Assembly (NCBI GenBank): GCA_964392775.1
Contig: CAYMRD010000006.1
Coordinates: 61,901-125,900 of the forward strand
Direction of reading: 5' to 3'
Length of the DNA: 64,000 nt
Origin: an uncultured Bifidobacteriaceae bacterium
Lineage (GTDB): Bacteria; Bacteroidota; Bacteroidia; UKL13-3
Positions 18,515-19,875 of this stretch are shown here, piece after piece. The notes beneath the pieces were generated by a model. The model did not search any database. It saw only the letters and a list, made by a program, of their open reading frames with translations, and had not been told where the DNA came from. The translations under genes and the position numbers were made by a program. Within the stretch, counting starts at the first letter, position 1. The number at the start of each line of letters is the position of its first letter.

Positions 18515-18949
18515 CTATTCTATCCTTGCGTCTTCCGTAATAATTTCGGTAAGATTGAGAGTAGGAAGAATGAATCCATTAAAATTTGACCCTTCTGTTT
18601 TCGTGTGTAATACACCGCGTGCGGTTCCAACTGTGAGAACACAAAGGTGAGTGATAAATCCTCTTGGAATTAGCAATGCCTTTTCATCTTTAATTTTGAA
18701 ATTCTCCCATGAATCATTTTCAATTTTAAAATGGCATGAAACGTCCAGAATGATAAATGGTTGTTCTTCTTGTTCAAATCTGACAGAAAATAAAACGCTT
18801 AAGGTTTTCTCTTCATCAACTTTTGCTGAAGAAAAGTTGATTGCATATTCTACAGATTTATCTGCGTCATAGTTTGAATCAATCAAAGCAAATTGTTCAG
18901 TTCGAATAGATGCCAATCCAAATCCAACAGTTATATTATTATTTGTCAT
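18515..18949 (-). CDS. SecB-like chaperone (third gene of a TAC-like module)
   Basis: 144 aa, acidic; pattern of beta-strands then helix ending GTARGVLHTKT...FILPTLNL, typical of SecB-like proteins; 1-nt TAATG overlap with the upstream gene. Confidence 0.7.
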   Translation of the reverse strand: MTNNNITVGFGLASIRTEQFALIDSNYDADKSVEYAINFSSAKVDEEKTLSVLFSVRFEQEEQPFIILDVSCHFKIENDSWENFKIKDEKALLIPRGFITHLCVLTVGTARGVLHTKTEGSNFNGFILPTLNLTEIITEDARIE

Positions 18950-19404
18950 TATGCAGCCGAGTCAATTTCTATTGGTGAGTTTTCGTATGAAAAGGCTTTG
19001 CGTGCTGAAACTTTCTGTGTTTCAGTGATTATGTTCTTTCTTAGGTTAGTCATACTAGCTGTTATGCTTTTAGTAGCCTTGTACTCTCCCTGCACCTGAT
19101 AATGCTGCACACTTATAAGTGTTATTTTCAAAAGAGACTCGATTTTCGAAATAGTTTCCAGTGTCAGATTCTCATTTCCTTTCAACATTTTATTTACGTA
19201 TTGAGCCGAAACACCCAATTCTTTTGCAAACTCAATTTGTGAAATTTTTCGTTCTCGTAATACTTTTAGAATTGAGATGGAAATGAGCATTGATTTTTTC
19301 AACCATTGACGGTTGGCCTTTCTCCAAGCAATTACTTCATGAACTTTAGATACTTCACTACTTACTATGTCTTTAAATTTTTTCTTTTCCATAATCTTAT
19401 TCAT
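18949..19404 (-). CDS. XRE-family HTH antitoxin (HigA-like) with a long C-terminal tail
   Basis: ISQIEFAKELGVSAQYVNKMLKGNENLTLETISKIESLL HTH followed by about 55 extra residues. Confidence 0.85.
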   Translation of the reverse strand: MNKIMEKKKFKDIVSSEVSKVHEVIAWRKANRQWLKKSMLISISILKVLRERKISQIEFAKELGVSAQYVNKMLKGNENLTLETISKIESLLKITLISVQHYQVQGEYKATKSITASMTNLRKNIITETQKVSARKAFSYENSPIEIDSAA

Positions 19405-19875
19405 TTATCAATTCAAAGAATCCATCAATATCTGTTATGCCCTGTTGGATAAGAAATTCTTTTATCTTTTGCATTCTGCCAATTTGAATTTCTGTGTCTG
19501 GATGGTCTTGCATTTTTTGATAATGAAATATTTAGATTCTATTTGGATAGCATACAGTCTAATCCAACTTCTTTTATACTTCATTCTATAGAGCACTTTA
19601 TCTTTGCCAAGCCTATCTAAGGGTTCAAAAATATTGTCTAAGCAATCTCTGTTTTCGTCTAAATAATCGTATAGCTCTTCAGCGATTATTGACGTTTGAA
19701 GAACAGCCTCTTCAACAGAAATTTGGACATATCTAAGTAATTCTTGATTTTCATGAAAATATTCCTCCAATTGGTTTGCATCTGTCAGGAATGCAATCAA
19801 TAAACTAAATGCATCTAGATTGTCATCGAATGATACAGAGTACAAATATGGAGCGAATATATTAACAAACCTCAT
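19397..19875 (-). pseudogene. RelE/HigB-like toxin gene, apparently frameshifted near 19513
   Basis: The 5' frame reads ...WIRLYAIQIESKYFII and then degenerates. The -1 frame continues MQDHPDTEIQIGRMQKIKEFLIQQGITDIDGFFELINE* (19513-19397), and its stop overlaps the antitoxin ATG (ATGAATAA). Confidence 0.7.

Follow-up and report, generated by a model that had tools for sequence, protein, structure and literature searches.

A three-gene block between comB and an ABC exporter gene

We analysed a 64,000-nucleotide stretch of DNA (hereafter the window: positions 61,901 to 125,900, forward strand, of contig CAYMRD010000006.1, GenBank assembly GCA_964392775.1) from an uncultured bacterium that GTDB places in the Bacteroidota, and within it a block of genes at window positions 18515–19875 that an earlier note had read as a toxin–antitoxin–chaperone (TAC)-like triplet. 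The block lies on the minus strand and consists, in coding order, of a toxin pseudogene (19397..19875), an intact antitoxin gene (18949..19404; 151 aa if counted from the ATG at 19404) and an intact gene for a 144-aa SecB-fold chaperone (18515..18949), the last of these assigned from an AlphaFold2 (AF2) model, Foldseek structural matches and PADLOC profiles. The TAC reading was largely right about the architecture; the window copy has decayed, and the family to which it belongs appears to be catalogued though uncharacterised.

The toxin pseudogene is made up of two fragments, in different reading frames, of a toxin family (T) with a length of 165–195 aa. The family profile matches the pseudogene over positions 1–129 in one frame and 137–177 in another. 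The 5′ fragment is an open reading frame (ORF) of 137 aa (19462..19875, minus strand), in which ~119 residues share homology with the family and the final 18 are read out of frame. The 3′ fragment (19397..19513, minus strand) comprises 38 codons, MQDHPDTEIQ...FFELINE, and corresponds to the C-terminal helices of the family.

The second gene had been described as encoding an XRE-type helix–turn–helix (HTH) protein with a long tail, and it does so. Residues 48–96 (19117..19263, minus strand) form the DNA-binding domain, which matches Pfam HTH_3 (PF01381, 5.9e-11) and contains the sequence KGNENLTLETI, invariant in the homologue alignment that also supports the integrity of the gene. The N-terminal helical region of the protein is conserved. 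Its C-terminal tail of ~50 residues (residues ~100–151; 18952..19107, minus strand), which varies, ends in EIDSAA, with Ser-Ala-Ala at the terminus, and is a candidate for a chaperone-addiction element.

The antitoxin and chaperone genes overlap by 1 nt, at TAATG (18947–18951), as had been observed. The 8-nt overlap claimed for the first two genes exists only between the 38-aa toxin remnant and the upstream ATG at 19404, and does not hold for the start that homologues support. In all homologues and in the public gene call (147 aa, P0116) the antitoxin begins at Met5, at 19392, a start that leaves a 4-nt spacer between the toxin remnant and the antitoxin and hence no overlap. Met5 is likely to be the true start, giving a protein of 147 aa. 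Upstream of the block, 59 nt separate the comB stop codon from the toxin start codon (19876..19934), and a promoter or operator of the cassette would have to lie in this spacer or inside comB.

The toxin gene is a pseudogene

Ten full-length homologues (167–171 aa) align along the entire frame-repaired translation of the window toxin, and all ten contain IITGGAIKQSQKM where the window toxin has II-KKM. At this motif the homologue DNA reads ATT ACA GGT GGN GCN ATT AAR CAR TCN CAA AAA ATG, whereas the window, compared at the DNA level with the homologous loci L001 and L002, reads ATTATC-AAAAAATG, a net 25 nt fewer. The loss sits at a run of six A residues (19513–19519), at a junction where ATC directly abuts AAAAAATG (19513..19521, minus strand). 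The codons for TGGAIKQS are gone and the frame is shifted.

K125, which lies within the lost motif, is invariant in an alignment of 128 diverse members of the toxin family, and T120, G121, G122 and I124 are nearly so. Because the motif with its invariant lysine is lost and the frame is shifted, the toxin is dead and the window locus cannot act as a TAC system. Since the missing motif is near-invariant, a single-base repair of the frame would not restore the toxin either. Over 1.6 kb that take in the junction, separately made assemblies of the sequencing runs SRR16797999 and SRR16798009 have exactly this sequence. We therefore rejected an assembly error as the origin of the break, and rejected a simple 1-nt frameshift or programmed slippage because 25 nt of conserved codons have been lost. 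The window toxin gene is a pseudogene, and what the locus now holds is an antitoxin–chaperone (AC) remnant without a toxin. An intact, active toxin gene, which is expected of a TAC system, is lacking in the window copy; its relatives have intact toxin genes.

Decay of the toxin gene alongside full-length antitoxin and chaperone genes was found, independently, in three further loci. The toxin gene is frameshifted in L028 (2212–2759) and in L047 (3989–4574), and in L011 only a 3′ remnant of it persists (1748–1855), amounting to the last ~36 codons.

The third gene encodes a protein with a predicted SecB fold

All 104 homologues of the chaperone that we collected are labelled hypothetical. No Pfam domain was found in the window chaperone or in any of the 104, the Pfam SecB model (PF02556) being among those that went unmatched, and a search of PDB sequences with the chaperone profile gave nothing informative. 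The AF2 model, built on 81 of the 104 homologues, is of high confidence (predicted local distance difference test score (pLDDT) 93.6, predicted template modelling score (pTM) 0.86) and consists of four strands followed by a long helix. All seven Foldseek matches in the PDB with E ≤ 0.001 are chains either of the M. tuberculosis TAC chaperone Rv1957 (5mtw, a complex with its ChAD peptide) or of the H. influenzae and E. coli SecB proteins (1fx3 and 1qyn). These matches have a probability of 1.0 and template modelling (TM) scores of 0.48–0.61, with E-values of 2e-4 for 5mtw, 1fx3 and 1qyn. Among PADLOC models, the chaperone matches PDC-M64C (2e-11) and the CmdC model PD-T4-9_C (4.7e-6). The SecB fold that had been predicted for the third protein is thus borne out by the model and its structural matches; going by that model, the window chaperone resembles SecB by fold and is not a canonical SecB by sequence.

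The antitoxin tail accompanies the chaperone

The PDC-M64B and PDC-M64C HTH models of PADLOC match the antitoxin at 1e-10 to 4e-13, and a PDB sequence search with the antitoxin profile returned generic HTH proteins only. The tail is variable in sequence yet present in all chaperone-linked antitoxins. Among 50 such homologues, the C-terminus is Ala-Ala in 13 and Ala in 31. In characterised TAC systems the antitoxin tail is the chaperone-addiction element (PMC6377645), and CmdA and M. tuberculosis HigA1 have ClpX degrons at their ends, Ala-Ala in the former and Val-Ala in the latter (10.1101/2024.02.24.581848).

Two-gene versions of the cassette also occur, in which a toxin homologue is followed by a 101-aa antitoxin that ends right after the HTH domain, with no third gene. 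One is carried by the Bacteroides faecis conjugative plasmid CP103229 (L073, 24661–25522) and another by the Phocaeicola vulgatus plasmid NZ_CP103198 (L074, 16580–17439). Each encodes a 183-aa toxin homologue, annotated as hypothetical, and the 101-aa HTH protein. A zeta-toxin gene lies ~1.1 kb downstream of the B. faecis pair, two genes on. A third chaperone-less pair, from a metagenome (L072), has an antitoxin with a short tail. As expected for TAC systems, the extension is absent or short in the chaperone-less homologues, of which there are just three examples, and among the comparative data these pairs speak most strongly for a link between tail and chaperone. The antitoxins of the chaperone-less pairs are tail-less or short-tailed, and thus tail and chaperone go together, as the chaperone-addiction model expects. 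Both plasmids are from human-gut Bacteroidales.

A toxin family with a probable, distant RelE/ParE-type fold

When 1.84 billion cluster representatives (50% identity clusters) were searched with the family profile, 989 of them belonged to the toxin family at E ≤ 1e-3. Nearly all members are 165–195 aa long and match end to end. In the alignment of 128 diverse members, R106 and Y108 are invariant together with K125, and K99 is present in 126. None of the 128 matches any Pfam or NCBIfam family. The frame-repaired window toxin gave nothing from Pfam, NCBIfam, PHROGs or PADLOC, PHROG scans of seven family members gave nothing relevant, and the family profiles drew spurious helical matches or none from the PDB sequences.

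For AF2 modelling of an intact toxin we took the homologue P0006, a protein of 167 aa with 58% identity to the frame-repaired window translation. The model is a single domain of high confidence (pLDDT 93.3, pTM 0.89), in which two N-terminal strands are followed by four helices, three strands and two further helices. The classical RelE/ParE fold runs from an N-terminal strand through a helical hairpin and an antiparallel sheet of three strands to a C-terminal helix. The five best Foldseek matches of the P0006 model in the PDB are chains of HigB in the HigBA complex of S. pneumoniae (6af3 and 6af4), with probabilities of 0.80–0.99 and TM scores, normalised to the target, of 0.43–0.63. Next in the list come PfiT, archaeal RelE (1wmi), V. 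cholerae HigB2 and ParE2. A search of the same model against a library of viral structures was uninformative. The modelled fold is probably a distant RelE/ParE-type (HigB-like) one, and we do not file the toxin in any named RelE, HigB or ParE family.

The earlier note had drawn attention to an unusual acidic region of about 90 aa preceding the RLYAI core of the window toxin. The region is there: the N-terminal 92 aa contain 20 aspartate and glutamate against 5 lysine and arginine residues, with an isoelectric point (pI) of 4.05, and the pI of the RLYAI core is 10.2. It is not, however, peculiar to this protein, because it is found across the family of 989 clusters (median pI 4.67 for the N-terminal half and 8.69 for the C-terminal core) and falls inside one confidently predicted domain.

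Distribution and association with restriction–modification genes

A search of species-representative genomes that started from the chaperone yielded 47 loci. Nearly all are in Bacteroidota, from Cytophagales, Flavobacteriales, Bacteroidales, Marinilabiliales and Chitinophagales; those outside come from Gracilimonas and Balneola and from one metagenome-assembled genome (MAG) each labelled Chlorobiota and Saccharibacteria. Profile searches in all reading frames found the order toxin–antitoxin–chaperone (T-A-C) with a full-length toxin in 44 of 52 loci, the exceptions being mostly at contig ends, and the same order recurs in loci found by starting from the toxin. The three-gene architecture is thus that of a cassette conserved in other genomes, in agreement with the TAC reading.

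Type I restriction–modification (R-M) genes lie within 6 kb of the cassette in 15 of the 47 loci. In four loci, L005 (Solitalea lacus), L032, L047 and L049, the cassette is inserted on the same strand in the order hsdM-hsdS-TAC-hsdR, and in L045 and L052 there are R-M genes on both of its sides. Other neighbours include AbiE-type, AAA_21 and Eco57I genes.

Individual loci have features of their own. The MAG labelled Candidatus Saccharibacteria (L016, CAZKPX010000015.1) carries a full T-A-C cassette beside an hsdR-like gene, which may reflect mis-binning or lateral transfer. Downstream of the intact cassette of L002 (5542–8513) are a C-terminal fragment of a Type ISP restriction protein, a DDE transposase and an Abi_2 gene, a defence-island and mobile-element setting unlike that of the window. 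In a Cytophagales MAG (L044, 5539–6378), antitoxin and chaperone occupy a single reading frame: the antitoxin end, ...EEEQFA, runs into the conserved EQFA(I/V) strand of the chaperone, as if the two genes had been joined by a deletion between two EQFA microhomologies that took out about the first 15–20 chaperone residues. This frame may be a natural fusion or an assembly artefact.

The block appears to have been acquired horizontally

The block lies, as had been noted, between comB and an ABC exporter gene. The exporter gene (16605..18497, plus strand) is convergent with it. On the other side is the gene for the 2-phosphosulfolactate phosphatase ComB (19935..20669, minus strand), followed by gcvT and tyrS. 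The exporter, ComB, GcvT and TyrS are housekeeping proteins, and no mobility gene is present among the flanking genes, in keeping with what had been seen. The ends of the chaperone and exporter genes are so close together (17 nt; 18497–18515) that there is no room for separate intergenic terminators.

The block is AT-rich, as had also been reported: its GC content is 33.2%, that of the window as a whole 41.9%. No more than 0.4% of intervals of this size have a GC content as low, and the block coincides with the most AT-rich part of the 64 kb, in which the lowest-GC stretch of 1361 nt begins at 18569. In 11 metagenomic relatives, identified by ComB proteins 64–72% identical to that of the window, the gcvT-comB arrangement is kept and there is no cassette-like sequence downstream of comB. 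The absence of the cassette from these relatives, together with its low GC content, indicates that it is an accessory block acquired horizontally. What follows comB is different in each of the 11 relatives, so that no clean empty site and no precise insertion boundaries were found among them. A search for target-site duplications and terminal repeats around the block revealed only short repeats at chance level.

Two observations were made elsewhere in the window. A 327-aa protein (30287–31270, minus strand) has a C-terminal sorting domain of the type IX secretion system (Por_Secre_tail, 3e-13), a Bacteroidota marker that supports the assignment of the DNA to this phylum, as does the distribution of the cassette homologues. 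A second low-GC patch (31497–33363, plus strand) encodes a protein of 345 aa that carries an AbiEi_2 antitoxin domain (PF09952, 7e-31), whose gene is overlapped by an ORF of 286 aa with a GDIDFAV-type motif and no Pfam match. The two are probably an AbiE-like type IV toxin–antitoxin or abortive-infection pair.

Interpretation of the cassette

We consider it likely that the block was acquired horizontally, is partly decayed and represents a type of TAC cassette common among Bacteroidota; its intact relatives would encode a HigB-like toxin and a chaperone-addicted antitoxin. The first gene of such a relative would specify a toxin of 165–195 aa, with a basic β-sheet core that bears the invariant Arg, Tyr and Lys and the TGGAIK motif, and with the acidic N-terminal β-hairpin and helical region in the same predicted domain as this core. 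If the fold is a distant RelE/ParE-type one, as the model suggests, the toxin is probably a nuclease directed at mRNA or the ribosome. The XRE-HTH antitoxin would neutralise the toxin and probably repress the operon. Its ~50-residue tail, often ending in Ala-Ala or x-Ala, would destabilise the antitoxin unless held by the SecB-fold chaperone. Should phage proteins or stress draw the chaperone away, degradation of the antitoxin, perhaps by ClpXP, would follow, and the toxin would halt growth. Toxin release on chaperone diversion would fit the observation that the cassette often lies between hsdS and hsdR.

Several results weigh against this interpretation. The Pfam and NCBIfam models for RelE, ParE, HigB and Gp49 match none of the 128 toxin-family members, and hhalign against E. 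coli RelE, for which we used a sequence checked to be identical to PDB 4v7k, gave a probability of 0.3%. A gapless profile offset that places K99, R106 and K125 on RelE K54, R61 and K80 scored no better than shuffles (z = 0.96), and we treat the alignment of these residues on the RelE catalytic positions (K54, R61 and K80/R81) as a non-significant lead only. The Foldseek E-values of the toxin model, 0.04–2, are not significant. The window copy adjoins no defence gene, and its antitoxin tail lacks the aromatic residue at −5/−6 that is seen in many relatives. The description of the toxin as RelE/HigB-like is weakly supported by the fold predicted for the intact homologue and finds no support at the level of sequence, where no model matches.

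The toxin could be part of a TAC-like architecture without being a RelE/HigB-type RNase, having some other activity and a fold only superficially like RelE/ParE. We think this unlikely, while granting it some weight. Searches of Pfam, NCBIfam, PHROGs and PDB sequences gave no relevant match for the family, the Foldseek E-values are at least 0.04 with TM scores normalised to the query of 0.32–0.46, and the toxin is ~60–80 residues longer than classical RelE and HigB, with extra helices and an N-terminal β-hairpin; unrelated toxins are, moreover, known from TAC systems, such as the ADP-ribosyltransferase CmdT (PMC9519451). Yet all PDB matches with a Foldseek probability of at least 0.3 are toxins of the RelE/ParE superfamily, and that to 6af4_G extends over 141 alignment columns with a TM score of 0.63 normalised to the target. 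In addition, a toxin gene placed first and paired with an XRE antitoxin is the HigBA arrangement, and the invariant basic residues lie on predicted β-strands. We give far less credence to the proposal that the triplet is not a toxin–antitoxin system at all, but a small regulatory module, such as an expression controller, in which an HTH regulator and two accessory proteins travel with R-M operons. Although the HTH 'control proteins' of R-M systems match the antitoxin weakly (PADLOC Control_protein, 4.6e-5) and many copies of the cassette are inside type I R-M operons, 32 of the 47 loci have no R-M gene within 6 kb, and two-gene toxin–antitoxin versions occur on Bacteroides and Phocaeicola plasmids, that of B. 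faecis two genes upstream of the zeta toxin gene. Inactivation has repeatedly affected the first gene alone, leaving the other two intact, as expected of a toxic gene, and the SecB-fold partner and the co-occurrence of tail and chaperone match the logic of TAC systems.

It is very unlikely that the window cassette is itself a working TAC system, its toxin break being a sequencing or assembly error or being bypassed by slippage on the A6 run so that full-length toxin is made. A run of six A is a place where errors and slippage occur, and the downstream toxin frame remains open, with conserved sequence, as far as the usual stop codon, but the break is a net 25-nt deletion and not a 1-nt indel, it is the same in the separate assemblies of the two runs, and the product of a frame-restoring slip would still be without TGGAIKQS, which includes the invariant K125 and the near-invariant T120, G121, G122 and I124.

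If, as we favour, the block is a decayed TAC cassette, the surviving antitoxin–chaperone pair, here and in the other genomes with decayed toxins, could have been kept as an 'anti-addiction' module. This is a speculative and rather improbable idea. Were it true, the AC pair would neutralise the toxins of related T-A or T-A-C cassettes that enter the cell with plasmids or other mobile elements, the Bacteroides and Phocaeicola plasmid copies being examples, and would protect its host from post-segregational killing.

Studies of TAC systems have covered Actinobacteria and Enterobacteria and the toxins HigB, MqsR, HicA and CmdT. The locus described here points to a large TAC family essentially confined to Bacteroidota and Balneolota. 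Its toxin is without a curated model, its cassette is frequently nested in type I R-M operons, and it has so far been no more than a computational PADLOC candidate. Intact copies are present in the cultured Solitalea lacus (CP091740, within 432125–439577), Gracilimonas mengyeensis DSM 21985, Carboxylicivirga taeanensis, Pontibacter ummariensis, Roseivirga seohaensis and Flavobacterium spp., which makes the putative chaperone addiction, ClpXP dependence and phage sensing directly testable. The tail-less (two-gene) and tailed (three-gene) antitoxins, in turn, would provide a clean natural test of chaperone addiction outside model organisms. The window copy is a decayed example, mainly of annotation value.

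Comparison with known systems

A PADLOC scan of the window proteins, which had been suggested as a check, matched the antitoxin and chaperone to PDC-M64, one of 145 untested PADLOC candidates defined by their embedding in BREX, DISARM or type I R-M systems (Payne et al., 10.1101/2024.01.29.577857). The antitoxin matches models of this candidate at 3.6e-13 and the chaperone at 2e-11. Intact toxin homologues match the toxin-sized PDC-M64A and PDC-M64B models weakly, at 1e-3 to 4e-8 and over the core only, whereas the window toxin remnant gives no match. Relatives of the window cassette are likewise embedded in type I R-M operons. On these profile matches, the cassette type is probably already catalogued, as the computational candidate PDC-M64. 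A full-text literature search for 'PDC-M64' found no paper and no published description of its parts; the impression that the variant had gone uncharacterised agrees with our finding no experimental characterisation of it in the literature.

The M. tuberculosis HigB1-HigA1-Rv1957 system has the same order of toxin, XRE-HTH antitoxin and SecB-fold chaperone, and Rv1957 (5mtw) is the best structural match of the window chaperone. In both systems the antitoxin has a C-terminal extension with a small aliphatic end, Val-Ala in HigA1 and Ala-Ala in the window, and both are found in horizontally acquired contexts. Unlike the M. tuberculosis system, the window family has a toxin of 165–195 aa with an acidic N-terminal region and no detectable sequence similarity to HigB/Gp49. 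The window chaperone, at only 12–14% identity, does not match PF02556. The family is in Bacteroidota, a phylum that a 2013 survey did not name among seven phyla with TAC systems (PMC3581621), and the window toxin is deleted and frameshifted.

CmdTAC and the NT1F31 HigB system are TAC systems that act in phage defence, with a SecB-like chaperone guarding the antitoxin. The window cassette shares the TAC organisation with CmdTAC, and its chaperone matches PD-T4-9_C at 4.7e-6. No match to the PD-T4-9 (CmdTAC) toxin model was obtained with the window proteins or the toxin homologues, the chaperone model being the only one to match. CmdA is a ClpXP substrate with Ala-Ala at its end, a terminus that the window antitoxin shares. 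CmdT is an ADP-ribosyltransferase and the NT1F31 HigB a classical HigB, whereas the toxin of the window family is neither by sequence. These two systems are prophage-borne in Enterobacteria; the window family, by contrast, is mostly chromosomal in Bacteroidota and often inside type I R-M operons.

Toxin-less AC loci have been described before, for example the SmegB locus of M. smegmatis (Sala et al. 2013, PMC3581621). Like that locus, the window block retains intact genes for an antitoxin and a SecB-like chaperone and has no working toxin. Unlike it, the window block has a toxin remnant that is still recognisable, so that the loss of the toxin looks recent.

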